NCBI GenBank assembly: GCA_976551045.1
Contig: CDPCPM010000015.1
Coordinates: forward strand, 5,208,001-5,272,000
DNA: 64,000 bases
Reading direction: 5' to 3'
DNA from: Glaucostegus cemiculus
Taxonomy: Eukaryota
How positions within the stretch are numbered: the stretch's first letter is position 1; each line of letters starts with the position of its first letter. The notes below the pieces were generated by a model, which was not told the DNA's origin, ran no database searches, and saw only the letters and a list, made by a program, of their open reading frames with translations. The translations under genes were made by a program, and so were the position numbers. Shown here one piece after another: positions 11,034-62,259 of the stretch.

Positions 11034-11145
11034 GTGAGCAAATTTTGCAGTTATATATTTTTCACAACCAAATGCTGTGGGATGATTGGTGCTTGATACA
11101 AGTTTGTAATTAACATATTCAATATCCCTTGCATTTACTTCCAAG

Positions 11146-12418: not shown

Positions 12419-12549
12419 ACAAGCTCATCTACTCTCAAAGGAGCCATTCAGCTGGGGATTGGATACACAGTAGGAAATCTCAGCTCGAAGCCCGAAAGAG
12501 ATGTGCTGATGCAAGATTTCTATGTGGTTGAAAGTATATTCTTTCCTAG
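12419..12549 (+). CDS. PIP5K1C: PIP5K1C exon 4 ([44 protein letters not shown])
   Basis: tgctgcag|ACAAGC...CCTAG|gcaagt; 131 nt; GC donor. Confidence 0.95.
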
Positions 12550-12934
12550 GCAAGTCTGTCTTTTCTCCAAGTAAATTTTTGGGATTGTAATATTTTGTTG
12601 CTTTTTTAATTGTTAATCATTTTATGATTTTCTCCTTAATTAATGTGGTGTCTAATGTTGGATAATTGTTAAAGTATATTTTGTATTCTCAAAAACTACA
12701 CCAAGAGATAAAAATGGACCTCAGTATTTGTATCACACCTTGTGTCTACAGGACATTTTGAAGTGTTTAACAGCCTGAGAATAACTTTTGAAATGCAGTC
12801 ACTGTTATGTAGGCAGGTGATAATCAAGAGAGTGAAAATTTCAAAAAAATAACTGCAGATGCTGGAAATCTAAGGTAAAAACAGATGCCAGAAATACTCA
12901 ACAAGTCAAACAACATCATGGAAAGATAATTTTT

Positions 12935-13030
12935 AAAAAATTTTATTTACAGTGTGATAACAGGCTCTTTCGGCCCAACGAGTCCACACCGCCCATTTTA
13001 AACCCCCAAATTAACCTAGCTGTACGTCTT
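12935..13030 (-). mobile_element. 5'-truncated V-SINE/HE1-like copy inserted in a Penelope-associated repeat
   Basis: Close reverse complement of the 3' part of the SINE at 37086-37362. Confidence 0.8.
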
Positions 13031-13409
13031 TTAAATAGAGTTAATATTTCAGGTTGAAGGCATTATGGGTAATTGGTTGTGTAATTATTGGGAGAACAGT
13101 GATAACAAGAGGAGGAACTTTTCGAATGAAACAAAGGAATCGTTAAATTCCCTGAAAGGCAGAAATGCCTCCATTTAATGTCTGATTCAAAAAATGACAC
13201 TTAGCAAAACACTTCTCCCTTTGGCCTACAGTGAAGTGTCAGCCTAGGTTGTAGTCAAGCTTAAATTCTGACAATCTGATTCAGCATTAAGAGTGTTGTC
13301 ATACTGACATAATAGATCGCAATAATTATTTACCTGTCTCATGGCAAAAGACGAGTTAGTCCTGCTTCTCACTCTTTGCATGAACTTGTGTGTAATTTGG
13401 CTGCTACAT

Positions 13410-15200
13410 TTAAGAAAACAGAAGCAGGAGTTGCCATTCAATAAGATCATGGCTTATCTTTTACCTCAATGCCACTTTCCTGCACTAACCCTATATTCCA
13501 GCTTTGGTTCATAGTCTTGTAATTATGACTCCAAGTTCTCAACTAGAACCTCCTAAATCTTTTGAAGTTTCTGCATCCACTATCCATTTGAGGAGTGAGT
13601 TCTATTCATGATGAAAAAAATATTTTCTTGATTCCCTTCCAATTCTTTCACCTGACCTAAATTTATGTCCCCTTGTTATTAACCCCATGTGGACAGAAAT
13701 AGATCCATCCTGTTCACCCTGATTAGGACTCCTAATTTTGCACACCACAATTAAATCTCTTTTAGGTTACTCACATTACCATGGTGCTCCAGACATTGCA
13801 GCATCCTTGTAAATCTCCTCTGCATCCTCTGATATTATATCCTTCTTGCAATGTGGTGATCAGAGCAATTCATATAGACTATTCTGACAATCCCTTTCTT
13901 ATTTTTTCTTAAAGGAAGATGGTTGTGGTTCTTGGCAGTCAATCACTCCAGCTCCAGGACATCACTGCTGAAGTTCCTTAGGGGAGTGGCCTCTGCCTAA
14001 CCATCTTTAGCTGCTTCAGGTCTGAAGTTGGGACTTTTGCTGATGATTGCTCTTGCATAATGCTTAGTTGCATCTGCAACTTCTCAGCAAATGAAGCAGT
14101 CTATGTCTGTATGCAGCAACACTAGGACAACATTTCAGCTTGGTCTGTTATGTGGCAGGTAACATTTGCACAAAAGAAGTGCTACATATTGACATCTCCA
14201 TCAAGAGAGAGAGTCTAACCCCAATCTACACCATTCATTCACTCCACCACTGATGCACAGTAGCAGCAGTTTGTACCATATACAGGATGCAGAGCAACAA
14301 ATCACTGAGATTCCTTAGATAGCACCTTCCAAACACGTGATCTCTATCAGCTAGAAGGACAAGGGAAGCAAAAGCATAAGAACACCACCACTTGGAGATT
14401 TCCCTCCAAGCCACACACTGTCCTGACTTGGAAATATATTGCTGTTTCTTCATCACTCAGTCAAAATCCTGGCACTCTCTCCCAAACAGCACTATGGGTA
14501 TACCCACACCTCAAGCAATTAAATGCTGGCTCAGCCTCTGTCCTAAGAAAATCAATACTCTTGTATTTAATTGTATCACTGTTATCTATAGAGAGATACA
14601 GCAGAGAAACAGGCCCTTCGGCTGATCAAATCTGTGCTGACCATCAGTCACCCATTTAAGTAATGTTAATTCTTTTTTATTCCCCTCAAATTCTCATCAA
14701 ACCACCCCTCTCCTTCAGATTCTACTACTCACCTACATACTAGGGGCAATTTACAGTGGCCAATTAACCAACCAACTTGCACGTCTTTGGAATGTTGGAG
14801 GAAAACCTGCGCACCGGGGAAAACCCTGCAGTCACAGGGAGAACATGCAGACTCCACACAGGACTGTCTCTGCTGCTGTGAGACAGCAGCTCTGCTATCT
14901 GCACCACTATGCCCAATGATCAACTTCCTAGGTGTCACTGATGACCAGAAGCTCAACTGAACCAGGTTAATGTGTATTGTGACCTTGAGTAGATCAGGGG
15001 CTTTGGTACTCTGCAGTGAAAGTCTCACCTCCTGACGCCCCAAAACCTTTTCATCATTAACGAGGCAAGTCAAGACTGATGGAATACTCTTCACTTGCAT
15101 GGGTTAGAGCAGCTCAACAGCACTTAAGGAGCTATAGGAGTCTGCTTGATTAGCACCACATCCAACACCTTAAGCATCCATTCCCTTCACTAATGGTGCG
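13410..15200. mobile_element. Cluster of degenerate CR1-clade LINE fragments in both orientations
   Basis: CR1 tail motif on the minus strand near 13410; plus-strand RT remnants (gaagttccttaggggagtggc, tttgctgatgattgc = FADD). Confidence 0.6.
14590..14915 (-). mobile_element. V-SINE/HE1-like SINE
   Basis: Reverse strand reads gtggagtctgcatgttctccctgtgactgcagggttttccccggtgcgcaggttttcctccaacattccaaagacgtgc, a V-domain like that of the 37086 copy. Confidence 0.75.
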
Positions 15201-15588
15201 CTACATCAGCAGCAAGAAGATGGTCACCACCTCCTTAATTTGAGTTTAAAAAAAAACAAGCATTAAGATATAATGATGTGGGAATTTGTTATGTTATCAT
15301 ATTTTCAAGCATCCATGTATGTATGTAGCATCTTTAGTGTTGTAAACATGTAGATTAGCTGTGTTAAGATATTGGTACTGTGTACCACCATTTTTATTTT
15401 GGACTGCCTCTCATTCTTAGTGGGTTTAAATATAAGGAGGTAAGCTGATCACTGGTGCTCTGTTAGACCATGAAGAGATGGGGACATTTGGCTGCATGCA
15501 ATTATGCAGTTTTTTTTACAAAATTGATGGTGAATATTTCCAGCTAATTTTGGTATAACTGATACTCAAGTTTTCTTTTAATTTACAG

Positions 15589-15706
15589 TGAAGGTAGTAA
15601 CTTGACTCCAGCGCATCATTTTCCTGACTTCAGATTCAAGACATATGCTCCAGTGGCATTTCGTTACTTTAGGGAACTCTTTGGCATTCGACCAGATGAC
15701 TATCTG
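15589..15706 (+). CDS. PIP5K1C: PIP5K1C exon 5 ([39 protein letters not shown])
   Basis: tttacag|TGAAGG...TATCTG|gtgagt; 118 nt; FKTYAP motif at the start of the PIPK domain. Confidence 0.97.
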
Positions 15707-18517
15707 GTGAGTGTAGTTAAGTGCTGGGTATTCTTGTGCACTGTGTGCCATGATTTTTAGTCAGTTGAGTTATGTTTGCTGTGAAACTGGAAAATCTCTT
15801 TTGATGAATTACATGCAATGATGCTCTGAAATTTTGCTGGTGAGTGGATCAATGAGTGGGTCTGTGATGTTTTTTATTTGTATAGTTTGTAAGATATACA
15901 CCAGCAGAATTGCAGATCTTCTCTTTCAAAGTTGGGCTATGTCTGGAGAAAGCAATTCGACAAGGAATCTAATTGGCAGTCTTTAGCAGATGAAGAATGA
16001 AATTTGTATGGATGTCATAGAACTTAAAAGTACACTTTTTTTTAATGTAATTTTTCTGTAATGCTTTCTAATGGTATTAGTATGCCACCTCTAGAAATTT
16101 GATATTTATACAATGGTGGCACAATAGTTAAACTACTGGTGTAGTTATCCCGAGGTCTGGGATAGTAATTTGGAGACCCAAGTTCAGATCTCACCTTAAT
16201 TAAATTAATGTAGAAATTAAAAGAAACTAGCCATAGTAATGGTGACCACAAAACTATCAGATTGTCATAAAAGCTGGGCTAATGTCCTTTGGGGAAGAAA
16301 TCTGGTGTCGGTACCCATTCTAGCCAATAAGTGACTCTAGACCTACGGCAATATGGTTAACTAACTGCCCTTCAAAGAGACTTGGTTGTATTATAACTGT
16401 CGTGACAAAACAGAACAATTCCTGAATAACTACTGTGGTTCAAGAAGATGGATCACTACTACCACTTTGAGGGCAATCAGAGATGGGCAATAAATGGTGA
16501 TAACACCCGCATTCCAAAAAATGAATTTATATATTTAAACAAAACATCCCTTAACGTGTCCTTTTCTACAAAAGGAATTAACATTTGTCATGCCCAACAA
16601 ATAGGATGACTTTGTCATTTTTAATACATTTCAAGTTTGACAGGTGAATTTTGTGCTTTCCATTATGCTTAATGTCACTTGTTCTGAGCTAATCACTTGT
16701 GTCTTAATATGATGTGTACCATGTTTGGGCAGGTGGTTAAATGGACTGAAACTTGTAAACTAACTGTTAAAAATTTCAGCTATTGGATCCTGGTGGTCCA
16801 GGCCTGTTTAGTTTAGAATTTTTAAAAATTTTTAGCAAGTACTTACGCATCGATAATTTAAATATAGTAAAAAGATGCACTGATTGGAAGTAATTCTTTA
16901 GTTAATCTTATAAGCTAAACACTATGAAAAATATCTGATCTTTTTCTGAATTAATGACATGCAGAAAACTGGCACATGATTGAAACCTGAAATGCACTGC
17001 CTGCAGATGAGGCAAAGGCAGTACCCATTGTGGCCCTCAAGATGGAACAGGATAAATGTATGGTGGAAAAAAAATTGCACAACTATGGAGAAAGGGCTGA
17101 TGGGTGGCATTAGAGAGCTGTTTGGGTACAGAGCTGATGTGGACATGCTGTGCCAAATTTTTCTGTGGTCAAACCATTGATTATGTAATTTTCTTCCCCC
17201 AGTAATTAACAGATCATGAATGTATCTCATTCTTCTAATAGATCCTCTAATCACTTCAGAATTACCACAATTCTTTCTTCTGTGGAGCTAGAAAAATAAC
17301 TTCTTAAATCTCAAGTTGTCCTGTGCAATTGTTTTTGGCACAACTAAGTTTTTCTTCAGTGTGTTTTTTACTGTTGAGCCTGGGAGAAGCAAATCAATGT
17401 TTCTAATTGATATCCAGTGCCCTCTGCTGGAAAGTGTGGCTTTTGGTTCAGGTTATGGGGTAGGATTATGTTTGGCTGTGATGCTGTCAGTTGGCCCATT
17501 GACACTTGCTTTCTAAGGTCACAGATAAAGGATAGCCATCTGGTTAGTCTCATAGGCCCCAATTCTGATGAAATTCTATCCCAGTGTAAGTTACCAGTTG
17601 CAAGAAAAGATTGTAAGACGTACATCATAATCAAAGGTAATAACTCCAAGAAGGGAGAGTGAATAATTTAGTGTTTGAAATATCTTGTTATTTCTGACTG
17701 GATGGATGGAAGTTGGGTGGGGGAGGAATTATGTGTAAGGTGCAATAAAATAACATCAAGCACAATGGCTAGTGGTGTTCTTTGCATTAGATTGTACCAT
17801 TGTATTTATTTAAAGTGTTCATGTTGGTTGGATTTAATTTCATCGTGGCAATGTATAAATGGAAATAATTCCTGACAACTATTGATATCAGGTTGGGTTA
17901 ATCAGACAGTGTGTACAGATGATTGAGTTTCACTAAGGGTCACTAGATGAGCATTGGCTCTAGGGCTCTGAATGATTTTTCTCCATTATCATTTACTTCC
18001 CCAACCCAGCAGAGGATTGCTGTAGTTAGTTCCATTTTATAATCATTTGGCTTATAATCATGAAATTCAAAGTGTGGGACCACCCTGTTCTGTGCAACAC
18101 AAAATCATAACAGACATTTCAATTACCAACCAAGTTACATTTTATTTTAAATAGACACGTGGTGCATATATTTAGTGGCAAGGAACTTCCTTGTTAATTG
18201 CAAACAACTGCAAATTCTGGAAATCTGAAATAAAAATAGAAAACATTAGAGATACTTAGTAATGCAGGCAGCTTCTGTGGAAAGAGAAATGAAGTTAACA
18301 CTTCAATTTGATGGCTTTTCATTAGAACTGAATTTGCACCATTTTCTGCTTTCATTATTAACAGTTTGTTTCTTTTTAATATTAATATTTTTGTCTGTTT
18401 TCCTTGAATTATTCAGGTTTATATGTCAGAAAATGCCCTTGGTTAATCATATCCTATCTATCAAGAAAGCTTCTTCACAGTCTGCAACTCTACCAGTTTT
18501 TGTGTTGTCTGCTTACT

Positions 18518-20070
18518 AACCAGCCCATGGCGAGCCAGTTCTGAACCCAAACTACCAAGTCACCGTGGATCCCATGCATCTTAATCTTCTGGATCAACCT
18601 ACCATGAGGGACTTTGTCAAATTCCATACTAAAGTCCATGTAGACATCATCCACTGTCCTACCCTCATCAATCACCTTCGTCAGCTCCTCAAAAAAAACT
18701 CAATCAAGTTTGTAAGATGTGACCTGCCTTGCACAAAGCTATGCTGACTGTCCCTAATTAGCCTATGCTTTTTCCAAATGTGCATAAATTCTGACCCTAA
18801 GAATCTTCTCCAATAGTTTCCCTACCACTGATGTGAGGCTCACCAGCTTGTAACTCACTGGATTATCCCTGTTTCCCTTCTTAAACAAATAAACAACATT
18901 GGCTATTCTCCAGTCCTCCAGGACCTTGCCTGTGGCTAGAGAGGATACAGAGATCTTTGTGAAAATTCCAGTAGTCTCCTCTCTTGCCTCTCTCAATAAC
19001 CTAGGATAGATCCCACCACCTTGATCTCAGAATATCCTAGCATATTAGTATATCTCACACTATCCTCCATTCCCTTCTTCTTGGTGAGGACCGATACAAA
19101 GTACCTGTTTAGTACCTCGCCTACATCCTCTAACTGCAAGCATAAATTCTGTCCTTTACCCTTGAGTGACTCTACCCTCTTCCTACTTATCCTCTTGTTA
19201 ATGTATATATAAAATGCTAAGGGATTTTCTTTAATCCTACTTGCCAACGACATTTCATGAGCCCTTTTGGCCCTTCTAATTCCTTGCTTGAGTTCTTTCC
19301 TGCTTTCGTTATATTCCTCAAAGGCCCTGTCTGATTTCAGTTTACTAATCCTTGGATAAGCTTCCTTTTACCTTTTTGACTAAATTTACAACCTCTTTCA
19401 TCATCCAGAGTTCCTTCACCTTGCCATCCTTGTCCTTCCTCCTTCCTGGAACATGTCCTGAACTCTGACCAGCTAATCTTCAAATGACTCCCACATGTCA
19501 GCTGTGGACTTGCCCAATAACAGCTGCTCCTAATTTACTCTCCCTAGGTCTTGCCTAATAATGTTATAATTTACCCTCCTCCAATTTTGTACTTTCCCTT
19601 TGGTCCACACATCCTTATTCAAAACTTAAGGAGTTGTAATCACTGTTCCCAAAGCAAATTCCAGTATGGTCCCTCCTCTAGTTGGAATATCCCCATAATG
19701 TTTCAAGAAACCCTCTTGGATGCACCTAATAAATTCTGCCTCATCTAAACCCCTTGCACTAAAGAAGTCCAGTTAACATTGGGGAAGTTAAAGTCACCCA
19801 ATACAACAATCCTGTTGCCTTTACATTTTTTCATAATCTGTTTAACATATCAGTTCCTACATCTCCCACTATTGGGAGGTCTATGGTGTAATCCCATCAG
19901 AGTGATTGCACTTCTCTTATTTTTGAGCTCTACCCATATTGCCTTAGTGGGTGAGCCCTCCAGTATGTCCACTGAGTGCAGCTGTGACATTCTCCATGAT
20001 TAGTAATCCAGCGCCTCCACCCCTTTTATCTCACTTTCCATCACATCTGAAAAACAAGGCTGGATTGTTA
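18518..20070 (-). mobile_element. CR1-clade LINE ORF2 remnant (endonuclease to RT), frameshifted
   Basis: Peptides EDWRIANVVYLFKKGNRDNPVSYKLVSLTSVVGKLLEKIL, VDDVYMDFSMEFDKVPHGRL and the endonuclease motif GDFNFP. Confidence 0.9.
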
Positions 20071-21705
20071 GCTTTATTTTTTTTTGAGAGTTGCTTGCTT
20101 CCTTTTCACCTTTTCCATTGAGTGTTAACTGCAGGCTGGACAATAGATGTGATAATCTCCCATAGAGTCTTAAGTGATAGATGGAGTATAATGGTTCAGC
20201 AGGAAATGAAGTGAGGAATGGAACAGGGAATTGGAGAATATTTGTTAACTTCAGTGTGTAAAGCAGTTTTAGTATTTTTAAAATACGCATTTATGCAATG
20301 TTCAGGAATGGACCAGACAACAAAACCAACAATTCCAATGTGGAAATTTCTATCCTATGAAATTAAAGTTGCCTTATTTTCCAGAGCCTAAACTAAACTG
20401 GGATTTTGAATGGAAGAGTATTGTTGAAGCTGCACTCATCCAGTCAAGTGAGGGATATTTCATTATATTTCTAAATTGTGCTTTGCAGATGCTGGAAAGA
20501 CTATTCAGAGTAGAGAGGGAAATTAGCTGCCATAGGATATCAGGTTTCCCATTTGTTTAGTAACCATGGTGTTTATCATTCTAATGTTGACAGACTATTA
20601 AAATCTATTGAAATAATAAATAGTTTCTTCACAAAAACGAAGTGCTTATGACCTGCTTGGATTCTGGATTAGCTATTTTAAAAATTTGCAGATAGCCCAC
20701 TCTAGTGGTCTGTATCAATGCTTGATCAATGCAAGCAAAGATCAGAGAACTTCTCTGTGTCCATCAAGTGATTATTTCTTCAGTGACATTAATGAATAAA
20801 AATTGACAGGATAAACTGTTCTCAACTTTCTTATTTATTTATGAGATAGAAAGAGGCCTTTTGGCCCATTGAGTGTTTGCCAGTTCTTGGAGCAATCTTA
20901 TCAGTCCCATTCCCCCACTTATTTCTTGGTAATCCATTCTGTCTCTCATGTCTTTTGACTGGTTATCCATTTCAGAGTTTGACTATCTAATGAAAGCCCA
21001 AGGATGGGACTATATAACATTTGAATCATTTAAAGTTGCTCATTCTTCTGAAAAAGTCTCTTTCGGTATCATATATTGAGTTATTGGTTAACTGTTAGGA
21101 CTTTATTGTAAAAGCAAGCAAAACAAAAAACCTCACTTTGTGTTTGACTCCCCATTGTTTCCTGAGTGGCAAACTGTGGACAAGGACCAATAATGTAAAT
21201 AATGCCACACAATTACTCTACTAAGTCTCTATCAGTTACTCTTGTACATGAATGCTGTTACTGAACTGTTACGAAATTGTGTATTTAATATGCAAATTAA
21301 AGCTAATGTGGACAAAATGGTTTGTATATTTTAAAACATTGAAAAAAAAGTAATTAACAAAAAATGGTTATATTTAATCAACAAGCTGATTCCCTTGGAT
21401 ATGGCTTGCAATTTTGAGCAGCTGTTAGCATCCATGTTGCAACCCCCATTGTCTTCTCTGCAGGATTCATTCCATCTGTGTCATTATGTGTTGTGTTCTA
21501 CGTGGGGAATTTGCCAGAGTTGGACATTGAGGGAAATTTGTTTTGCAAGAAAACTCTAAAAACTCTAAAAATACCTTATGCAAAAATACTAATCAGATCA
21601 TTTGAATTTAAAAAAAAAAAGGAGAGTTTATGGTAAATGTATCAGAAAAGATGATGAAATGTTCACTGAATAAGAGTGTTTGCATTGTGATTTGTTCTCT
21701 CATAG

Positions 21706-21858
21706 TATTCATTATGCAATGAACCCTTGATTGAACTCTCCAACCCTGGCGCCAGTGGATCTCTCTTTTATGTGACAAGTGACGATGAGTTTATTATAAA
21801 GACTGTGATAAACAAAGAAGCAGAATTTCTACAAAAGTTGCTTCCAGGTTATTACATG
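21706..21858 (+). CDS. PIP5K1C: PIP5K1C exon 6 ([51 protein letters not shown])
   Basis: ctcatag|TATTCA...TACATG|gtgagt; 153 nt; GASGS glycine loop and IIK ATP-binding lysine. Confidence 0.97.
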
Positions 21859-22277
21859 GTGAGTGATTTTTCTCCATCCCCAATCCCCTCCATTTTTGTC
21901 TACTTTTTTGAAATCATTAATTTATCCTGGAATATAGATCTACATCCATCTGGTGACCTTTGATACCTTACGTAAGTAGCTATTCCTATGTGGGTGGAAA
22001 CGGTGAATGATGCAAACTAACACCACCTACTGTATATGTGATAATTGTCAGCTGGTTACTTCAGGAGAAGCATATAATTTTTGCTGATGTGCATGCATTT
22101 TCCCATTCCACTTATAGACTCTGAACATAACGTTAAAAATACAAACAAAATCACATCCTGTTTGATTCAATGTCTCGACATCTAGCACACAATACTGTAC
22201 TGCATTTATTTGAATGATTGCTACCGGTTCATTTGTTACATTAATACATGGAAAACACTTTCTCTATTTTGTTCCAG

Positions 22278-22577
22278 AACCTGAATCAGAACCCACGGAC
22301 ACTCTTGCCAAAGTTTTATGGACTCTACTGCGTTCAGTCTGGCGGCAAAAACATTCGAGTGGCAGTGATGAATAATGTGTTGCCGCGCGTGGTGAAAATG
22401 CACCTCAAGTATGATTTAAAAGGTTCAACCTACAAAAGGAGGGCTTCAAGAAAAGAACGTGAGAAATCCAGACCAACATTTAAAGACTTGGACTTCATGC
22501 AGGATTTCTCAGATGGATTGTTACTAGACGCGGACACAAACTGTGCCCTGATTAAAACCCTGCAGAGAGATTGCCTG
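22278..22577 (+). CDS. PIP5K1C: PIP5K1C exon 7 ([15 protein letters not shown]...[13 protein letters not shown]...KDLDF...LQRDCL)
   Basis: gttccag|AACCTG...TGCCTG|gtaaga; 300 nt; DLKGS motif. Confidence 0.97.
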
Positions 22578-22764
22578 GTAAGAAGAGAGTCAGGAATTCA
22601 TTTAGAGGGAAAATAGTTTAAGAAAACAATATTAATAATATTCTGGTCATGCCATACTACATGAAATAAGGAACAGAAAAGTGTCTTGGACAGTAATTAT
22701 TGATTTTTGCATGTATTAGTCAGGAGTGTGAGGAGCAACTGTATTCTGTGCACAGAATAAGTGC

Positions 22765-23045
22765 AAGCATCTTTTCCCCAGGGTGGCAATGGCCAATACT
22801 AGAGGTCACCCATTTAAGGTGCATGGAGGAAAGAGGTTTTTTTTACGCAGAGTGGTGGGTGCCTGAATGCAGTGCTGGGGGTGGTGGTAGGGACTGATAC
22901 AATGGAGTTGTTTAAGAGACTATTAGATAGGCATGTGGATGAAAGAAAAATAGAGGATTATGGAAAGTGATTGGGTATAAAGCTTATATAGGTCAGCACA
23001 ACATCATGGGTTGAAGGGCCTCTACAGTGCTGTACTGTTTTATGT
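22765..23045 (+). mobile_element. CR1 3'-end fragment
   Basis: ttttacgcagagtggtgggtgcctgaatg...gaagggcctctacagtgctgtactgttttatgtt tail. Confidence 0.7.
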
Positions 23046-23249
23046 TTAAACTTCATTATAGAATGTAGCTCCTTTTGGAGAAATAGCAGAACCACAAGTT
23101 GTCATCAGAATGACTGTATGAGCATGGAATGTATTTTGATTTTCTTTTGGAATGGGAAGGGAACAATCATAGAACCACTGAAATTTCTAGTGCTAAAAGG
23201 AAAGCTGTTAAGTGCAAAGAGTTTTTGTTACCCAAACCCCTGTTCCCAT

Positions 23250-25070
23250 TCCTAGCCCTGCAGGTTATGGCACTGTGCACATTATGATACTTTATAAATG
23301 TAATAATTGTTTCTACCACCACCAACTTTTCAAGATATTGAGTTCCAAAACCCCAGGAATTATTGGGTGAAAAAACAACTTTCTCAACTTTTTTCAAAAC
23401 TTTCTCCATTTACTTTAGATCTTTGTTCCCTAGTAGTTGTCCTTTCTGCTGCTTGTTCACCTTGTCAAGACCTCACAATTTTGTACACCTTGATTAAATC
23501 TCACTTCAGCTCCCTTTGTTTCAAAAGGAAACAACATGCCCAAGCTAGTCTCCTCATAATTAGCTAGTCTCTTGACTAGCAACATCCTTTGCATGCTCTC
23601 TAGTCCTATTACATCTTTTGTGTAATGTGGTGGCCACAGTTCTAGCTGTGGCTCTTCAAGCATTTTGTACAGATCCAGCAGACCAAGTTTTATTCTGTGT
23701 TTTGCTAATAAAAACAAGTATCCCATCGGTTCTAACCACCTTTATCTACTTGTCCTGGTAGCATCAGAGATCTGTAGGCATGTCTTCCAAGATTGCCTTG
23801 CTCTCTAACTCTTTTTAGCATCCTACTATTTATCTTATTTTAGCTTGCCTTGTTTGCCTTCCATTAAATTCATTATATGGTGCACCTTTGGAATTCCATT
23901 TGCCACTTGTTTGCCCACCCACCAGACCAGTCTACTGTCAATCAACAGCAAAATGATGGAAGATTCAAATGTGGATGAAAGAGCAGAATTTCAGAAGTGG
24001 GGTGAGAATGACTGTCCTTGACATTAAGGCAGCATTTAACCAAGTGTGGCATTGACTCCTGATGAAACTGTGGTCAGTGGGCATCAAATTGAAAACATTC
24101 CAATAGTTAGGATCATACCTTACACTAAGGAAAATTGTTGTGATGGCTGGGTGTCAGTTGTCCCAGTCTAAGAATGCCACTGCAGGAGTTCCTTAGAGTT
24201 TTATTCTAGGCCCAGCTAACTTCAGCTGTGTTATCAATAATAATCCTTCCGTTATGCAGTCAGAGGTGGAAATGTTCACTGATTTGTGCATTTTTCAATG
24301 CCATTTGAATCTCCTCAGGAAATGAAGCAGTAATTGCATGTATTAAGATGTTCCAGTTTGGGCTGATTAATTGTTATTTAACATTCACACCACACACATG
24401 CCAGGCAATGACCATCTCCAACAAGTCAGATCTTCAAATTTTCACTTAGCAAGGATAAAGTTAATGAATATCAAGGATAAGTTTCTCCACCATCAGTATC
24501 CTGGAGGTCACTGTTGACCAGAAACTCAATTGGACCAGCCACACACACATTGTGGCTGCAAGTGCAGTTCAGATGCTAGATGTCCTGCAGCAGGTGATTT
24601 GCCATCTGACATGTCAAAGTTTTTCCATTATATACAACTTGGAAGCATGATGGAATACTGTCCAATTACCTGCAGTTCCAACTCGGTACCATTCATGGTA
24701 AAGCAGGCTGCTTGATAGGTGCCCTATCTATCACTCTAAACATTAATTCCAGCCACCAACACCATACCATACCTATGATGTGTGCACCCTAGCAAGTACA
24801 AAATACATTGCACTAATTTGCCTAATTACTACAGCAGAACAATCTGAAGCTTGTAACCTCTGGCATCTAGAATAACAAGGGAACCAAGTACATGAACACC
24901 TGTAGGTTCCCTTCAAGTTGCTCACCATCCTGACTTCTTTGTCACTAGATTTACATCCTGGAACCCCCTTATCCAACAATCTCACCATAAAGATTGTAAT
25001 ATCTTAAGAAGATGGCTAATCATTGCCTTTTCCAGGGCAGTATGGATGGATGATAACTGCAGGCCCACAT
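23250..25070. mobile_element. Degenerate CR1-clade fragments (minus about 23250-23930; plus about 23960-25070)
   Basis: WPPHYTKDVIGLESMQR (CR1 C-terminus) on minus; cttgacattaaggcagcattt and ggagttccttag RT motifs on plus. Confidence 0.65.
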
Positions 25071-25537
25071 CCTGAAAAATGAATGAATAAAGAAATCTTC
25101 CTGCTTTGCAAGAGCAACAAAACAATCAATTTTGGTATCACTTACAAACTTTGAAAATAAGTCTAAGTGAATGAAAAGCAGGTTCATGGAATTGAGCTCA
25201 ACAGAATCTCATTGGATGCAGCATTCCAAGCATTAAAATTCACTTTGGTCAGTGTAAATGTTACCCACTTCTCCTGCCACTTCATTTTTTTTTTGATCTT
25301 CTCTCTATCTACTTTGAAAATCAGGAATGTGGAGCTAAGCTTGAAGCTATATTTAAGAAATATATTAATCTTTTGAGAAGCTTTGTTCACTTTAATCTTT
25401 TGGATCATATTTTTTTTCAGTGGTTTCTCGTGTGTGATGTCAAACAAGCTTTCATGCTAGATGATTTGATATCTCCTAGTTACTGACTTGTGTGCAGACT
25501 AATTGTTATGTTATTTCTCCTTGTGCAATTTCAATAG

Positions 25538-25743
25538 GTGCTAGAGAGCTTTAAAATCATGGATTACAGTTTGTTGTTAGGAGTTCACAATTTGGACCAA
25601 GCAGAGCGCGAGAGGCAGTTGGAGGGGTCACTAAGTACCTCTGATGAGAAACGACCCATTGCACAGAAAGCCCTCTATTCCACGGCCATGGAATCTATTC
25701 AAGGTGGAACTTCACGGGGCGAGTCCATTGACACAGATGATAC
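25538..25743 (+). CDS. PIP5K1C: PIP5K1C exon 8 ([18 protein letters not shown]...[12 protein letters not shown]...DTDDT)
   Basis: tcaatag|GTGCTA...GATAC|gtatgt; 206 nt; catalytic MDYSL motif and kinase insert. Confidence 0.97.
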
Positions 25744-25874
25744 GTATGTAGATATATTTTTACAAAACATTTTACTTTTGCTATGTTCAAGTGCTATGAC
25801 TTAAAGAAAATGAAAAAAGTGCTGTTGGCATCTGAAGATTTGCTTTGCAATGAGGATATTTAGTCTTTGCAATA

Positions 25875-26662
25875 GAAAACAGATATGTTAAGTGAGCAAA
25901 AGTTTGGCAAATGGAGTACAATGTGGGAAATTGTGAGGTCATGCACTTCAGTAGGAGGAATCAAAATGAAGACTAACATCTAAATGAGACTGGAAGTGAG
26001 TGGAGTACAGAAGACACAAAGTGTTCTTGTGCATAAAATGCAAAAAGTTAGCCTGTCACTACAGCAGGTAATATGGAGACATATGGTACATTAGCCTTTA
26101 TTGCTGGTGGTTTAGAGTTTAAAAATAGAGAAGTATTATTACAATTGTACAAGGTGTTGATGAGGCTGCATGTGACAGAGCTTTGGTTTCTTATTCAAGA
26201 AAGGATATACTAGCATTGAAGGCAATCCAGAAGACATTCACTTGGCTAATTTCTGAGATGAGAGGTTGTCCTGTCTCAGTCAAAAATTTAGACCTTTATT
26301 TTAGTTTAGAAGAATGAGGTGGTGACCTTATTGAAACATGCAAGATGTTTAATGGGGCATAAAAGGTACATGTTAAGATAATTCCACGAATGGGAGAGTC
26401 TTGAATGAGAAGATGTAGTTACAAAATAAGGGAGGTGGTCATTTAAAACTGAAATGCATAGGAATTTTCTCTTACAAGAGGTACTGAATCTCTGGAATTT
26501 TCTACCCCAGAGGTTGTGGAGGCTGGAACATTGGAGGTATTAAAAGAGGAAGCAGATAATTATTTGAGAGGTCAGAAAATTGAGGACCATGTAGAACTTG
26601 CACAGAAAAAGAGTTGAAGCTTGGGGTCAGGAAGCCTATTCCTTCTCCTATTTTCCTGTGTT
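25875..26662 (+). mobile_element. CR1 3' fragment filling most of intron 8
   Basis: tggcaaatggagtacaatgtgggaaattgtgaggtcatgcac (WQMEYNVGNCEVMH) through a cctattccttctcctattttcctgtgttc tail. Confidence 0.8.
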
Positions 26663-26732
26663 CGTGACCTTTTTTAACTGCAGACTGTTACATTTTCAGG
26701 TTATGAAATGACATTTACTTTTCTTTTTTTAG

Positions 26733-26816
26733 GATGGGCGGTATTCCAGCAGTGAATGGGAAAGGAGAGAGGCTCCTCTTGTACATTGGTATTATTGACA
26801 TTTTGCAGTCTTACAG
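26733..26816 (+). CDS. PIP5K1C: PIP5K1C exon 9 ([28 protein letters not shown])
   Basis: ttttttag|GATGGG...TTACAG|gtaggc; 84 nt; IID motif. Confidence 0.97.
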
Positions 26817-27877
26817 GTAGGCTTTTGTTCATGCTATAACAAAGTGCTTGAAAGAGTTTTAACTTGACCTTTGTACATGGGAAGAATTATAATAGCGAGA
26901 TAGATTGCAGTGGCTTAAGGAGACCACTTTATCATCAACTCTCAAACAATTAGAGGTATATGATATATGCTGAATTTAACAGTGATACCCACATCTCATA
27001 AGATTTAAGTTTGTTACTTAGGCACAGTTTCAAAAGTGGCTTCTGGTAATTGACCAAGTAGCTAATTACATGAATATCACAGTTTAAAATTGTACAGGCT
27101 GTTTGCCTTGGGAGTATTGCACCTTAGCCAAGTTCTGTCTGTTGATGCTGCCTGTCCATTTCAAATTGCAGTTATTTGAATAGCAGCCAGGAGGTGGAAA
27201 CAATTATGTTTAACTCGGGTAACCTAATTGTAATTTGTAGGATGTAGCAGCTACCTTGCTGGTGATCAGCTGGCATGGCTTAAATCAGTGATAGGAGACC
27301 AGAACATTTTTGATCTGTGCAACTTGGTCCCTCACTGCTTTACAATTTTTTGTGTATTTTTTCGGTTGATACTCTTTCTAGAATGTGTTTTGGTGATACA
27401 CCAGATCTAATGTTGAACTAAATCCAAAGGTTCCTAGCACACAGGATGTCCTGATTGGACATTGTACTTGGTCAAACGTGGCAGCAGTTTTTCCAACAGC
27501 AAGATTTTTCTAAGAGTAGTGAGATTAATAACCTGATGATCTTTAAGAATGCTGCTCAAGGGACAGATATTGATAATAATAGGAGAAATCTCTTCAGATT
27601 GTGCTGTGGAATTTATTATATGTACTTAAGAGTGCAACAGAGGCCACAATTTAATGAGTCATTCAATAAAAGCTTTCTCCCAACAATACAACATAATTTT
27701 AGTTTTATAGTACTGCAGTTTAGCCTTAATTATGTGCTAAAGTCTCTGGAGTGGGGATTAAACCTTATGATTTGAGTGAAAGTGCTAAAGTTTATATCAG
27801 TGTTGAAGCAAGGCCTTATCTTGGCTTAAATAAGTGATTTACAAGATTAATCAAAACTAACTAATGTTTATGTTCAG

Positions 27878-27926
27878 GTTGATCAAGAAACTGGAACATA
27901 CTTGGAAAGCACTTGTTCATGATGGT
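27878..27926 (+). CDS. PIP5K1C: PIP5K1C exon 10 (LIKKLEHTWKALVHDG)
   Basis: tgttcag|GTTGATC...GATGGT|gtaagt; 49 nt; activation loop with the type I (PI4P-selecting) Glu in KKLEH; CTAAC branch-point-like motif just upstream. Confidence 0.96.
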
Positions 27927-29171
27927 GTAAGTTTTCATTTTAAAGTGATATAACCAATTAAGAAATATCTACCAATTTACCATATACAGTTACATTTCAA
28001 AAAAGCAAATGCCACTGTAATAGTCCACACAGCCTGTTTTCCATGTGTAGCCTCCAACTGAAATGTTGTCAAAGATTTCATTTTCTAGCTTCCCTTATTT
28101 TATGGTTAGTTTCAGAACTAAAGAAATCTGCAGCCTCCTTTTTAATTCCAAGAGATTGTAAAATGAAAAGGTTCAGGGATAGATGTGATCACATCCTTGG
28201 TTGATCTGAAGTTGTGGGTTATATGTTGGAAGTACATAGGATGTATATTACATCACAAGAGCCAGTTCTACTCTAATGACATCCCTGTAATGTGAAAGTT
28301 GCATTTATTGTACAGCATTCATGTGGTTTAGTGCACTGCACCATTTGCATGAGTTATAGTTAAGTAAAACGTGAGGAGTTCTGTATTGACAAAGATAATA
28401 TATTCCAGGATATTTTAGTTTGGTGGAGGAAGTTCCACAATGTCCACTGAGTGACCTGTTCATATTGAGTTTTATGTAATGACTTTGAATGTTGATCTAT
28501 CCTAATAAAGAAATGTGTGAAGCAAGTCTATCAGGGCACTTAAAGAGAAATGAACAAGAAGGTGAAGGAAAAGCAGGGCAAAGCTTTCCTTTACACTGAA
28601 TGTATTAGATTTGGGCAGAGTTCTATGGTTCCATTTAACTTGTACTTCCATAGTTACTGTTAACATGAGCAAAACGTAAGGATACCAATCTTTCTTTACT
28701 CAATGCAAGATTGAACATCAGTGTTTTGGTAAGTTAGGGAAATATCTGAGCTAGATACAGCTGGTCAGCAGTTCAGTTCTTCCAGGAAACAGAGTAATTC
28801 AATATCTTGGTAGAATTGCATGCTGTTAAGGTTATCTTTAGCTCTTTTGTGAGATTTGGGCAACAGTGGCAAGGCTAACACTTAATGCTCATCCCTACTT
28901 AACCTTAAAGGTGTTGCTGAGCTGCTGCCTTGAATTGCTTCAGTGCTTGTTGGCAGTAGAACTTGCCTCGTGTTAAATAATTCTCCAGTGATGTAGGTGG
29001 AATTCAGCATTTGACTTTAACTTCAAAAAAAACAATCTGCTAGGGGAGTTCAGTGGGTCAGGCAGCATACGTGGAAGCTGAGAAATGTCCACTAATTGAC
29101 CTATTCATATAGAGTTTTATATAATGACATTAAATGTTGATTTATCCTAATAAAGAAATGTGTGAAACAAG

Positions 29172-29471
29172 CAGGGACATGGCCTCAAGATTCAGGGAAA
29201 TAGATTTAGGACAGAGGTGAGGAGAAACTGCTTTTCCCAGAGAGTAGTAAATCTGTGGAATTCTCTGCTCAAGGAAGCAGTAGAGGCTACCTCATGAAAT
29301 AACTTTAAGACATAGTTAGAGAGAGATTTTTGCATTGTAAGGGAATTAAGGGTTATGGGGAAAAGTTGGGTAGGTGGAGCTGAGTCCATGGCCAGGTCAG
29401 CCATGATCTTACTGAATGGCAGAGCAGGCTCGATGGGCCAGATGGCCTACTCCTGGTCCTATTTCTTATGT
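29172..29471 (+). mobile_element. Relatively young CR1 3'-end fragment
   Basis: agagagtagtaaatctgtggaattctctg...gatggcctactcctggtcctatttcttatg tail. Confidence 0.85.
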
Positions 29472-30107
29472 TGATGGTTTGGATCAAGACCTTGCATTAG
29501 GACTTTTGTGTCAGCATTTTACTTGACTTGTATGTTATTAATGCAGTAATTAAGTCAGACTTCTTTTAAACCTATTTCTTTCATTCCCCTTTCAGCTTTG
29601 GATCCTTTTCACCCAGGGCATAGCTGTGGTACTCTTTAATACCTCCCTAGAGCACCTGTGGATCCTGGGCAGTGAGAATGACCAGGTTATTTGATTGTAA
29701 AGTGATCACTTGGTCTGCACCTGTACTAAATTGATGACGCAAACAACCACTCTTGCGTTAAGATCAGAATCATGAATCCCTCTGTGGCTCACGTGTATTG
29801 AAGTCAATTACTACGCTGACTAAAATCAGCTAACACTGAGTCAATTTTAGAAACACATTTCTGAATGTTTAAATATTTTCATTAATCAAGGTAATTTCTA
29901 GTTAGACAAGATTCATTATTTTGCCCCATGCAAGCCTTTAACAGCTTCGATAAAATTCAGTGTTCAAAACTTATGGGTATCCTGCTGTCTGGCAGTTAAA
30001 ATTTTGATATTTGACTGGATTTAACTACATGTTAATTTTAGATTTTCTAAAACAATTTCTTTACACACTGTGAGTAACATTGTTTTTCCTTGGAATTTTT
30101 TTTACAG

Positions 30108-30192
30108 GACACTGTGTCAGTGCATAGGCCAAGTTTCTATGCTGAAAGATTTTATAAATTTATGAGCAGCACTGTCTTCAGAAAGTCTTCAT
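30108..30192 (+). CDS. PIP5K1C: PIP5K1C exon 11 ([28 protein letters not shown])
   Basis: tttacag|GACACT...TTCAT|gtaagt; 85 nt; end of kinase domain. Confidence 0.96.
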
Positions 30193-46591: not shown

Positions 46592-46742
46592 TGAAGTTCC
46601 TTCAGCATCTGCACGTACAAGTTCTACTATCACTTTGGAAGCAGACACTGTGAGCCAGATCTCTGAGGGAGCCAGCCATGCTTCTGAGGAGGCAGAAGAT
46701 GATGAAGAAGATGAGGAGGTTCCAGTTACAGACATATACTTT
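46592..46742 (+). CDS. PIP5K1C: PIP5K1C exon 16 (EVPSASAR...EEAEDDEEDEEVPVTDIYF)
   Basis: gcttttag|TGAAGTT...TACTTT|gtgagt; 151 nt; ends in TDIYF, the common C-terminal end of gamma isoforms. Confidence 0.93.
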
Positions 46743-50150: not shown

Positions 50151-52748
50151 TCTGGGGCTTTTGGCAAGTTTCTAATTTGCCACAGCACTTTCTGTCTGGC
50201 ACAGAACTCTCAACTGACATTAACAGTGGTGTAATATGTGAAACCACCTGCTGATTTACAACCTCATTGATTCTTGCTTCCTCCAAGAATGACAAGGTTT
50301 CGCTAGCCTGTTTTCCTTGGAACCATGCTACTTTAAAGGCCAATGTATATTTTGCATTCTTTTTCCTCACTGAGATTCATGACCTCTTGCAACCTCGCAA
50401 ACAACCTAGTTGGTGTATTGGCTGATTTGCCCTTTGAGGTCAAGGACATAGTCAATCTCAGAGTTCTAGATTCTGGGTCATTCTAGGCTGTTGCTACTGC
50501 AGGCTACCCTAAAATGTTAGCATTCATAGACTGCAGTATGTCCTCACAGGCACCTTGCTGGCACCTCCTGCCAGTAGTGACTGGCTGTATTTTTGGAGAT
50601 ATTTGTGACCCGTAAACACAAAGAACATGTCTCTTGCAGGTATTTTTTCTTCACCAGTCAGTCCAGACCACCTTCATCACGTGAGCACACTGTCCCACCC
50701 TCTTCTGATTATCATTTGCAGAATCTATTCATTCAGTAGCAACACTCCCTTCTGCCTGGGAGGGTTGCTTGGGATATGTTCCTTTCGGAGCTGGCTGGAG
50801 GGATTGGGCTGTTCTGCTTAATGTTAGCAGCCGCAAGAACTTCCAATATATCAGTAAGGAACACCATGTTGAAAATGGCATGGGATTGCAAAGGGAAATT
50901 TGACAAGAATTCCATCATTGAAGATCTTGGTCTTAATGTGACAAGTGTAATTGTGGTGACTAACATTGCAGACTAACAGTGACTAATGGCATTAAGAGGT
51001 ATTAAAGCAATTTTTACTCGTGTGCGAAAATCACTTTCTTAAAGTGGAATGTAACTTAAGAACAAAAGTAAAAGTACACTTACTGAAAGTATAGAAGTTA
51101 ATCTATTCCCAGATTCCAGGAAACATATGGAGAGCACACTGCCTATGGAGTCTCACCAGATGATCTGGCAAATTTTCAATCTAGTTATGTAGGGAATTAT
51201 TCTGGGATTCTGGATTGACAGTTCTATTTTCCCTCACCGGCTCTCAGCACAGAAATATTGTTCATTTTATATTTATAGGATTAAAGCTGACTTTGTCTTC
51301 AAATGGGAAACATGTTTACACCTAGACTTCCTACAAGTGGGTCTCCATTCTAGGAACTGAATTCCTACTAACCCTGCCACTCTGGATCCTTGGTGAAAAC
51401 TTCCTCATTGAGCCCAGCTCTAACCCATCAGCAAGATCTTGCATAGTGTATGTCCTGCCATTTATAACTCCCAGTAGAAATGCTTTGCCAGCAGGTTAAG
51501 GCATATCTGGCAGAACTGCTGACAAAAATATAAATATCTCTGATATTCACAAACATTCAAAAGCAATTAGTTATTACATATACAATTTAAAAAGTTTTAA
51601 ATTACTTTTTAAAAAAGTAAAATACAAATACATAAGCTGATAGGAAAACACTTAAAAAAACAATTAAATACCTTTAAACTAACGTATCAAAAAATGTAAA
51701 TTACCTGAAACTTGCCTTTGTCTCTTGCAGCTGTCAATGTCCATTGAAGTGGTTCAGGTTGCTGAACCTCCATCATTTAACTTGACACAGGTTTAGCAAG
51801 TGTAAGTGCAAGGAAACTTATGACATTTGTGCTGTACTGATATTTAGGAATGCAGTCAATAAGTGAGAAAATTTGGGACTTCTGGTTTTGCACGTATTTA
51901 CACAAGAGTTCCAAAGTGCCTTAGAGTTGTGGTGATAGATGCCTGAGACCCGGCATGGGACTGCTGGTGCTGAAAATTTGAGCAGTGGTTTATAATCTAA
52001 ATGTGAATATGAAACTATAGTTCTCCGGCATTGAATGCAGAACCAGTTTTTGCAGAAGTGGTGTCTATTGCCTTGGGATCTGGAACAAATCAACTAGTTT
52101 AGTAAATGGTTTATAATGGGGCTAATTTTTCTTATAACTCACTGTTAAGGGGTCAATCATTTGTGTAAAGCAATTGATTACCCTGGTTTACATGTTTTTA
52201 TATTGGATAAAATGATCAATCCTTGCGTGAACGCAGTATGGTGTCAGTCCTTTACGGAGGACTTTGCTTTAAAATCATTTATATTCCTTCCTCCTTTTTG
52301 TCTTCTCCATTTCACCATTTCTCAGTCCACTTCATCTAATTACCATATAGTAGTCAGCCCCCAAAAGATCTTGGTTCCTGCTTTAGTCTTGTGTCTGCCT
52401 GACTTAATTAAACATTAAATGAACAGCTTTTTACGACAATGCAACACCTTCTGGAGACATCTGGGCCAGACAGCAAACAGTGTTTGGAAAGCATAGAGCA
52501 GTGCCATTTGTATGAGAAGCCATAGTTCCTAAACGTTCAGGTTTGCAATCGTTTTAAAAATTGGGTAATTGGACTGATGATAAAGCTTTGATTGCAGCTA
52601 TGTTTTAGCATTAGGTTGAGCAGGATCAGGATAGTGCCATTATCATTTTACATGTTTTTCTTTGATTTCTTCACATATTGTTTTAATTCTTTTCACCATC
52701 ACTTTCTCCTTTCCTATTTGTGTGCCGTGGTTTTCTCTCACCATCCAG

Positions 52749-52823
52749 TTTACGGATGGAATGTACTGGATTTATTCTCCACAACGCAGTCGTTCCCAAG
52801 CCACATCAGTTTCTGATGAGAGT
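52749..52823 (+). CDS. PIP5K1C: PIP5K1C alternative exon (75 nt; FTDGMYWIYSPQRSRSQATSVSDES), counterpart of the mammalian i3/i5 FTDGRYWIYSP exon
   Basis: ccatccag|TTTACG...GAGAGT|gtaagt; phase 0 to 0; long pyrimidine tract upstream. Confidence 0.88.
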
Positions 52824-53004
52824 GTAAGTTGGTTCTTTTTATTTAAATCTCAATGTTCTATGTTCAATGTCTCTATTTTAATTTTAGTTTCAGCCATTGT
52901 TGACCATACCATCTTTGTAAAAGTTCTAAACTAGTCTATGTGAGAGCACATGAATTAGGAGTGGAAACATAGAACAAAGCAAAATGCTGTGGAAAATAGT
53001 TCCT

Positions 53005-53350
53005 CTTCCATACAGTAATGCAGCAAAGATGTTTTCAAAGCCTTCATGAAAAAAATGTAACATCCCCTCTGAATCTTTGGAATCCCTCGCCCGTAACTGC
53101 TCAAAATGGGGAAGGAACTTTCAGGATGGCACTGAGAATCTTGAGTCTGTCTGTTCATCTGGAACAAACTGAAGACCAACAAAAATAGCAGAAGGAATGG
53201 ACCATTTCTTACCACCCACCCGGTCAAGAATCTCCTGCACCTGTGATAAAGTCTGCAGATTCCACATTAGCCTCATCAGCTTCCTTGGAATCCAAAGAAC
53301 TAGAATGGAAGCAAATCATTCTCAACTCCAAGGGACTGCTTAAGAAGAAG
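53005..53350 (+). mobile_element. RTE-clade LINE 3' fragment
   Basis: ttcaaagccttcatgaaaaaaatgtaacatccc...tgggaatc-like core, decayed C2H2 finger and aagaagaag tail; homologous to the 2866 and 62260 copies. Confidence 0.65.
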
Positions 53351-55264
53351 AAAGGGATTTCTGCTTCACCAGTGCTAAAATTGGTGTATCAACGAATTTA
53401 GATCCTAAAATTCAGCTGCTTAGTCTCATAAGGTGAAGAAAGGTGCACATTTTACCCCAGAGTTCATATTGATGCAATATACCATAGTTTTTCATACACT
53501 CGGTTGTGTACATTGACCTGCATTTATTTTACAAGACATAAATAGAATCATTGGCAGATTCAAATTTTGATAATATGAAGGGGTGGTGAAATATGATTTG
53601 AATTCCTTCTTGGCTAAGCTTGAAAGCTGATTGGATTTCTCAATCCACTATTTTATTCACAAACAGTTGATCTAGATATATAGAATCATGGTTACCAAAG
53701 AACTTTCTTATTTGTTATATTGTTCTCCTTATCTGTTTCAATTTGATCTAGACAAAAGTTTACAACTTCTACAATCATTACAATGCTTTTACCTGAAGGT
53801 CACAGACTAATGTTCAGTTTTGTTCAAAAACAAATGAGTTTATTTTTCAAAATATACTTTTACATTCTTAAAAAGATATTATGTGATGGACAAACTGTCA
53901 ATACACCATTGTTTAAAAGTTATTACACTTGAAGAACAAAATGTCCATCCTGGATCTGATAACACATGATCTGAGGACCAGATAAATCTGTTTCAGAAAT
54001 AGAAATACAAAACAAATTGCAGATATTGGAAATCTGAAATAAAAATAGAAAATGCTGGAGATACTTAGAGGTCAGGCAGTATTTGTGAAGATGCAGTTTT
54101 TTTAAAGTAATGTTGAGTGAAGGTCCAGGACATTAAAGCCAGAGGTACTCCACTAGTCTCCAAAATATTGGTGGTATATTTTCTCTTGATAACATTAATA
54201 CTTTGATTCAGAGGAGCCCCTCTTGAGACATTTGGATCAAGAAAATGCTACCGTTGATGCTTTTGCTTGAAGAGGAATAAACAGGATTAAACTTGCCCTG
54301 GCTATGTATTTGTATGCAAATGTTGACACTGACCACTCATAGGATACTTGACTGTTCAGCAGGCAGATAAGCTATGGTGGTTGATGCTGTTCCTGTGTGG
54401 TGAGCATTTATCTACTCAAGTGTACACAAACACTCACTCACTCTCTCCCAACTCACTTGCTCATTCACTCTGTCCCTTCCAATAAATGTCATTTGATAGT
54501 GATTAGAACTGCATTTATTCACATACCTCTGTCTCAGATCCAAGGCACAAATGGACCAATTGTAACACCCAGTTGTAGCACTCCGATTAGTCTGGGTGAG
54601 ATCAGCTAATTGAACACAGCCATGATAGTAAGATTGGAATATTTTGTTCTAATTGCCTTTTGTACTGACAAGAAGTTTTGTAAGTCTTTATTGTCCAAAA
54701 ATAGATACAGCCGTGTAGTAAACTTCTGTATGTAGCAGTATTATATTCCAATCAAACATTATTAATGCAAAATATTGAGCAATCTTTTAAAACTGCAGCA
54801 ACACCATTTAATAGTTTCATAGCACAGGTAATTTACTTTTGAAGGATAATTTTCTTTTACTAATATTAGAGAATAGCAAAGGACAAAGTAGTAATTAGCC
54901 AGCATCTTGAATGGAAAATGCAGATTATTTTCAACTTGAATGCAGACCATTTTTAATGTCTTTTTACATTTAAGTTTGATGTGGTAAAATGAGACAAAAT
55001 ATACATTTTAAGAAAAGTTTACATGAGCTACAATTTTCTCATGGTTAAATCACATGCTAGTCACTGCACCAAAATAAAAGGTTTACATCACTTTCTGCAG
55101 TTCTGCTGGTATATTTGTTTGGCCTTCCTTTAAACATACTCTGTCTGGAAATTCACATAATATATAACTTGTTTCTCACCTGCAGTTACTTTCTTTCTTC
55201 TTTCCCATTTTTGTTGCTTTCCATGGTTTCTATTTTGTGTCTCCTGTTGATTCCGGTTATTCAG

Positions 55265-55348
55265 TGTACAGAAGAGAGGGCCTGGATTTACTCTCCTCTT
55301 CACTATGGTTCTCACGTCCGTTCAGTTTCAGATGGAGAGAGTGAAACT
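55265..55348 (+). CDS. PIP5K1C: PIP5K1C exon 17 (84 nt; CTEERAWIYSPLHYGSHVRSVSDGESET), talin/AP-2-binding tail of PIPKIgamma90/i2
   Basis: ttattcag|TGTACA...GAAACT|gtaagt; aligns with mammalian PTDERSWVYSPLHYSA..ASDGESDT. Confidence 0.94.
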
Positions 55349-60211: not shown

Positions 60212-60214
60212 TAA
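60212..60214 (+). CDS. PIP5K1C: PIP5K1C terminal exon coding part: the TAA stop codon only
   Basis: ctctcttttgttttcaatcag|TAAATCTATGCAG; phase 0, compatible with exon 16, the alternative exon and exon 17. Confidence 0.82.
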   Translation, partial: 

Positions 60215-62250: not shown

Positions 62251-62259
62251 GGATTACCA

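Follow-up and report, generated by a model that had tools for sequence, protein, structure and literature searches.

Exons 16c and 17 of a ray PIP5K1C gene are sister copies, most likely of one tandem duplication older than the split of cartilaginous and bony fish

Two cassette exons near the 3' end of the PIP5K1C gene of Glaucostegus cemiculus, called 16c and 17 here, are sister copies that most likely go back to one tandem duplication before cartilaginous and bony fish separated, and they likely act as separate cassettes, each providing the kinase with a docking tail of its own. We put the probability of this reading at about 0.9. The two exons have homologous sequences in equal register and phase, their counterparts in other species form separate ortholog groups, and they share an ancestral block at their 3' ends. 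Between them, they decide on the destination of the main PI(4,5)P2-making kinase, which lies either at focal adhesions and synapses or at septins and endosomes. The duplication as such is already in print, and moving it further back in time corrects the record slightly. The new findings are modest: this greater age, an ancestral block at the 3' end, a talin motif retained in fish 16c, and a related exon in PIP5K1A. Their worth lies in the evolution of the gene, where they raise the minimum age of the event and provide, in the PIP5K1A exon, a possible means to order the events.

The window, that is, the whole stretch of 64,000 nucleotides that was analysed, contains most of the PIP5K1C gene on its plus strand. 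The gene is identified as the PIP5K1C ortholog by the presence of both the PIP5K kinase core and the gamma-specific tail exons. Its similarity to gamma proteins is 83-87 per 100, compared with 76-83 for the two paralogs in the same genome, and the best matches of the exon at 32803-32946 carry the name type-1 gamma. The protein encoded by exons 16c and 17 is identical to that of RefSeq manta ray models, for example XP_072100553.1. The features that are needed below are the following.

11140..30192, plus strand: PIP5K1C kinase-domain exons, placed by splice sites and by tblastn with P0292, a manta ray model of PIP5K1C, to which most exons are 85-96% identical
46592..46742, plus strand: exon 16a, the last shared coding exon, which ends in TDIYF and has a phase-0 donor GTGAGT
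52669..52748, plus strand: pyrimidine tract and acceptor of exon 16c, with 60/80 pyrimidines and a weak likeness to the tract of exon 17
52749..52823, plus strand: cassette exon 16c (the i3/i5/i6 insert), 75 nt, 25 codons, with the YW dyad retained and Q at the Phi position
55185..55264, plus strand: pyrimidine tract and acceptor of exon 17, with an 11-nt word at 55215-55225 inside
55265..55348, plus strand: cassette exon 17 (the i2 tail), 84 nt, 28 codons, with WIYSPL, a talin/AP-2-type motif
60212..60214, plus strand: start of the terminal exon, an acceptor followed at once by a TAA stop and then by the 3' UTR, arranged like human exon 18

Exons 16c and 17 are both preceded by a CAG acceptor and followed by a GTAAGT donor, with phase 0 at both ends, and all of the 3'-end junctions (16a, 16c, 17 and the terminal exon) are in phase 0. 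The initial annotation, made from the letters alone, had given the same exon coordinates, phases, donors and long pyrimidine tracts, and both of the DNA blocks that it named are present. It had also assigned the gene to PIP5K1C, the upstream exon to the i3/i5 type and the downstream one to the talin/AP-2 type, and these identities are supported. The layout agrees with that of the PIPKI-gamma isoforms i1, i2, i3, i5 and i6 (PMC2782315; Xia et al. 2011, PMC3176900), which use 16a, 16c, 17 and a stop-bearing exon 18, and a GTAAGT donor with a read-through option. The ray 16c, however, has 25 codons and ends in SVSDES, whereas that of mammals has 26 codons. Reading through the donor of 16c leaves an open, i5-like extension of 36 more codons (window 52824-52930), and reading through that of exon 17 one of 12 more codons (window 55349-55385); models P0309, P0027 and P0313 of other sharks and skates have annotated ends of this kind. 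One kinase-domain exon has a GC donor (GCAAGT, at 12550-12551) instead of GT.

Aligned without gaps, 16c and 17 are identical at 11 of 25 residues and at 47 of 75 nucleotides, and none of 200,000 residue shuffles reached the protein value. Only the final ES requires a one-codon gap to be aligned. It was on this likeness that a tandem exon duplication had been proposed, and similarity outside WIYSP had been set beforehand as the test that could refute it. With WIYSP left out, the residues still agree at 6 of 20 positions (p 0.003) and the bases at 34 of 60, the latter against a codon-shuffle mean of 16.3 (p 3e-5), and the 3' part alone gives 5/14 residues (p 0.005) and 24/42 bases (p 1.5e-4). 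The local DNA score of the pair is 34, while the maximum among 1,512 other 84-nt windows is 25. The tandem duplication is thus supported by both the identities and the shuffle tests.

The likeness would need another explanation if two unrelated exons had independently gained W-x-Y-S-P and a serine/acidic end under similar selection for binding or phosphorylation. Serine-rich ends are indeed common in disordered tails. In a harsher null, built from 10,548 non-independent 14-aa windows of PIP5K1C tails, the observed score of the 3' block is reached by 2.2% of the windows when compared with exon 16c, and by 0.15% when compared with exon 17, and by itself the serine-rich 3' block is only moderately rare in disordered tails. 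Convergence does not, however, account for the WxYSP motif beginning at codon 7 in both exons, which are also of equal phase, or for DNA identity that extends to non-identical codons outside the core. Nor does it account for the fact that all four serines standing in register are written with TCN codons in both exons. Furthermore, the human exons bind different partners, which leaves no common selection for a single motif. Convergence is largely refuted, and we give it hardly any credence.

The intron flanks add little to the homology of the two exons. Their pyrimidine tracts are long, with 60 and 61 pyrimidines in 80 positions for 16c and 17, respectively, compared with 37-54 at the remaining 14 acceptors of PIP5K1C. 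Among 120 pairs, the two acceptor flanks rank top when 80 or 120 nt are compared and fifth at 200 nt, with a block-shuffle p of 0.006, while the donor flanks have no likeness (ranks 101 and 47 of 120). The likeness of the acceptor flanks is largely one of pyrimidine content, and the support that it lends to homology is weak. No third copy of the exon was found in the window, where a 25-column profile rises above threshold only at 16c and 17, and a low-sensitivity search of the ray's own genome with exon 17 returned one candidate, exon 17 itself. Among PDB entries, exon 17 has a weak match to the integrin/PIP-kinase chimera 2H7D (E 0.086), and 16c has none.

The comparison across vertebrates is based on about 400 proteins, from which 50 models with both exons were picked by hand, one per species or paralog; together with the window this gives 51 pairs, without additional isoforms or near relatives. 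The panel is without 16c from cyclostomes, coelacanth, gar, bichir or sturgeon, and chimaera is seen only in the form of exon-17 models. The mean identity of 16c and 17, out of 25 positions, is 9.8 in elasmobranchs (n=8), 9.6 in mammals (n=12), 9.0 in sauropsids (n=11), 8.0 in frogs (n=6), 7.2 in teleost copies (n=13) and 7 in the lungfish. The 3' block is more alike in elasmobranchs (4.6 of 14 versus 2.7 in mammals) and the 5' block in mammals (2.9 of 6 versus 0.4 in elasmobranchs). Mammals are equally alike overall because they have retained the 5' block. The earlier suggestion that the 3' block was eroded in mammals is thereby borne out, while as a statement about the whole exon an erosion in mammals is ruled out. 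The similarity outside the core is significant within mammals alone (p ~0.001) as well as gnathostome-wide. In cross tests, bony 16c against elasmobranch 17 gives p 0.004, and lungfish 16c against elasmobranch 17 gives 0.0015 by score and 0.013 by identity.

The pattern [ST][VI]S[DN]ES is found in 9 of the 51 copies of 16c in the panel, namely in all eight elasmobranchs and in the lungfish Protopterus, where it reads TISDES. Amniote 16c copies have a basic RRLR run, and elasmobranchs a serine-rich run in its place. Judging by this distribution, the 3' block S[VI]S[DN]ES is ancestral. In a tree of 44 rows and 25 columns, taken from 22 of the 51 pairs and with 17 of its 40 inner branches open, 16c and 17 fall on the two sides of one branch (support 100/99). 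The block shared by elasmobranchs and the lungfish and the split of 16c and 17 at one branch mean that the duplication is older than the divergence of sharks and bony fish, as the initial annotation had supposed. The pair also shows two marks of a tandem exon duplication-derived substitution in the sense of PMC8373072: two adjacent exons of one gene have measurable homology, and, as expected of common ancestry, each is closer to its counterparts in other species than to its twin, the splice sites being those of this genome only.

The duplication might be old and the 3' likeness of the ray still recent, if cartilaginous fish later underwent gene conversion between the two exons or a separate duplication. 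The DNA identity of 63% is high for an old event, and elasmobranchs have I in the cores of both exons, which would fit such a history. It is contradicted by TISDES, which is retained in the lungfish 16c, by the AU test, which rejects a clade joining both elasmobranch exons (p-AU 0.016), and by the codons, which differ for 5 of the 11 shared residues. We consider a recent origin of the 3' likeness improbable, and an old tandem duplication remains our preferred reading.

A 38-position tail profile was also run against 1.84 billion representatives in search of cyclostome and invertebrate forms. It gave 61 matches, with no cyclostome recognised; the 15 that were looked up were jawed vertebrates where named, about 12 matches were repeat-driven noise, and the rest had gnathostome-type 16c/17 text. 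This result is no evidence of absence. In Heterodontus, models P0006-P0012 and P0431 have several other cassette ends after 16a, and none with 16c among those examined; its 16c may be unannotated or lost.

It is important to relate these results to the existing record. Schill and Anderson (2009, PMC2782315) called WIYSPRH the "sister" of WVYSPLH, and the word "duplicat" is absent from that paper. The human pair is listed as tandem exon duplication event 159, with Euteleostomi as the last common ancestor, by Martinez Gomez et al. (2021, PMC8373072). That catalogue has the identical two exons and classes them as a tandem duplication of the C-terminal type; it differs from the present work in its Euteleostomi date and in the 67-aa i5 form that it uses, while the date here is at least gnathostome-old and the evidence is at the level of DNA and of the 3' block. 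In the same catalogue, 84.3% of the events go back at least to the ancestor of human and shark, and the older date of 16c and 17 is therefore the usual one. The idea that the ray exposes a hidden duplication has to be given up, given the likeness noted in 2009, the entry of 2021 and mammals that are as alike overall. The 2022 follow-up of the catalogue does not list PIP5K1C, either in the main text or in the supplement examined. No main text found in the literature pairs PIP5K1C with exon duplication; the event sits in a supplement, so other supplements may hold an older date or the PIP5K1A exon.

We now turn to the motifs that the two exons carry. The ligand consensus of the talin-1 PTB domain is [WF]xx[SN]x[ILV] (PMC12102759). 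Exon 17 fits it in all 51 pairs, with WIYSPL in the ray. The ray 16c, with WIYSPQ, fails it; among 16c copies the consensus is found in 0/8 elasmobranchs, 0/29 tetrapods, 1/1 lungfish and 10/13 teleost copies. The YxxPhi adaptor signal is Y-x-x-[LIFMV], and the ray 16c (YSPQ) fails this as well, while 8 of the 13 teleost copies fit. The loss of YxxPhi that had been claimed for the upstream copy therefore holds for the ray but is not general. Position 12 of 16c is Q in seven and R in one of the eight elasmobranchs. R also stands there in 25 of 29 tetrapods, whereas the lungfish has V, and all 13 teleost copies have one of V, I, L and F. The lungfish and teleost copies that keep V, I or L there and fit the talin consensus include P0394, P0265, P0326, P0251-P0254, P0334, P0340, P0049 and P0097. 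In the five 'a'-type teleost copies sampled, both tyrosines are lost. With exon 17 (L) as the outgroup, two separate losses of Phi in 16c take 2 steps, as opposed to 3 for the alternatives, and would thus be favoured by a thin margin. The natural variants at this position (L, V, I, F, Q, R) allow a direct test of whether talin binding was lost.

The YW dyad (positions 6-7) is present in 46 of the 51 copies of 16c, that of the ray included, and exon 17 never has Y at that position. Human i3 and i5 bind septins through this dyad, Y646/W647 (PMC12886786). The ray 16c shares the dyad with the septin-binding insert; it differs in that elasmobranchs have the serine-rich run in place of the amniote RRLR, and septin binding in fish is putative. 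Human i5 binds neither talin nor alpha-adaptin (PMC2782315), and the suggestion that the upstream exon has different partners thus has a published counterpart in human, from which it may carry over to the ray. The Y and S of exon 17, which are phosphorylated by Src and Cdk5 (PMC2171813), are both retained, and the tail of this exon has been linked to AP-2 (PMC3437557). By analogy with the mammalian work, WIYSPL of the ray exon 17 would bring the kinase to talin and to AP complexes, with phosphorylation of its Y and S acting as a switch of the recruitment. The ray 16c, having the YW dyad without the talin consensus or YxxPhi, would instead be expected to lead to septin and endosomal partners. 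The inclusion of neither, one or both exons could in this way set the site of PI(4,5)P2 production.

The two paralogs in the genome were also located, and 160 kb around each was examined. One of them, on contig C682, is PIP5K1A: it has an ITH signature in common with zebrafish alpha structures that is absent from the window gene, and motifs downstream of it belong to what we take to be PSMD4, the neighbour of PIP5K1A in human. In this gene, a 16c-like exon follows directly after a 16a-like exon that ends in ETEICF with a GTAAGT donor.

G000:C682:232885-232790 (L021:5790-5885), minus strand: PIP5K1A 16c-like exon, 96 nt, phase 0-0, with an AG acceptor and a GTAAGT donor

This exon starts with FLEGRYWICSSPI and is proline-rich thereafter. 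Among 19,092 AG-started frames scored with the 16c profile it comes second, at 37.8 compared with 34.4 for exon 17 and 19.9 for the best background. Its first 12 codons are identical to those of the ray 16c at 23 of 36 nucleotides, which 0/50,000 shuffles reach, and 8 of 12 residues are identical to the lungfish 16c. Over these 12 residues it is closer to 16c than to 17 in all 51 pairs. The exon is known from one genome, and its splicing into mRNA is putative; among the literature matches listed, a weak check, PIP5K1A is without mention. A counterpart of exon 17 was not found in the 100 kb of PIP5K1A scanned, up to the next gene. The intron flank of the PIP5K1A exon is closest to that of exon 17 (block-shuffle p 0.045, compared with 0.15 for the flank of 16c). 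The 11-nt word at 55215-55225, which occurs once in the window, also stands in the pyrimidine tract of the PIP5K1A exon, 62 nt upstream of it, which is its one occurrence in the 160 kb of C682. It is possibly an old splicing element, its significance being marginal.

The other paralog, on contig C54, is PIP5K1B by elimination and by a neighbour that is presumably frataxin. It has no 16c- or 17-like exon in the 100 kb downstream, a range that extends into the next gene. Its last coding exon (L012:6190-6315, minus strand, ~G000:C54:15852312-15852190) ends in DIRL directly before GT, parallel to DIYF before GT in PIP5K1C, and the 16a-type exon end is therefore common to all three paralogs.

Since an exon of the 16c type stands at the corresponding position of the ray PIP5K1A, this exon likely predates the duplication that separated PIP5K1A from PIP5K1C; in a published tree, alpha and gamma come out tentatively as sisters (PMC6523245). 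The question is then whether both exons existed before that gene duplication, with exon 17 later lost from PIP5K1A, or whether exon 17 arose later in PIP5K1C alone. That the PIP5K1A exon is clearly of the 16c type speaks for the presence of both beforehand, as does the known loss of one twin exon after a gene duplication in PGM1/PGM5 (PMC9741552). There, as here, one gene has two exons and the other one (PIP5K1C and the ray PIP5K1A, respectively); for PIP5K1, however, both orders are viable, duplication after the gene split or loss after it. In addition, lamprey talin co-precipitates a PIP kinase, and a WVYSPL peptide blocks this (PMC2172527), but the result is equally compatible with a single ancestral exon that had the talin motif. 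An early presence of both exons further requires one extra loss, and the closeness of the PIP5K1A flank to that of exon 17, 11-nt word included, is what a single forerunner would leave. We rate the early presence of both exons as a serious possibility, a little short of even odds.

The talin-binding exon 17 could also be the younger copy. A 16c-like ancestor exon with both the YW dyad and a talin-type W-x-x-S-x-Phi, already present in the gene from which PIP5K1A and PIP5K1C descend, would then survive in the ray PIP5K1A, and the tandem duplication in PIP5K1C would have split its jobs. Exon 17 would have lost the Y of YW, and Phi would have disappeared from 16c twice, once in sharks and once in tetrapods. 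We regard this as rather unlikely. If it were true, the 16c of lungfish and teleosts would still bind talin, giving two talin sites in their i3 isoform, and a septin-binding isoform of PIP5K1A, so far undescribed, would exist in elasmobranchs.

Finally, we consider how the two exons are spliced. Among 76 predicted chondrichthyan models, with several per species, 24 have both exons, 19 have 17 only and 16 have neither, while 2 read through 16c and 15 have other ends. The human and rodent v3 isoform likewise contains both exons (PMC3176900). Strict mutual exclusivity is ruled out by these models and by v3, and the two exons are not either/or alternatives; 16c and 17 are likely spliced as independent cassettes. 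The RNA that was examined over 44800-64000 (three raw-read runs and one contig run) covers coding exons at a depth below 0.5x, which is too shallow for junctions, and no junction into 52749 was seen. The RNA joints listed in this region are between repeats. Most of its RNA reads are attracted by fragments of abundant repeats at window 54020-54065, 58890-58935, 59490-59510 and 62400-62500. Further downstream, stranded sense RNA reads are present in most bins of window 60184-64000, with a stranded depth of 1-3x in the bin 60184-60824, which suggests a long 3' UTR.
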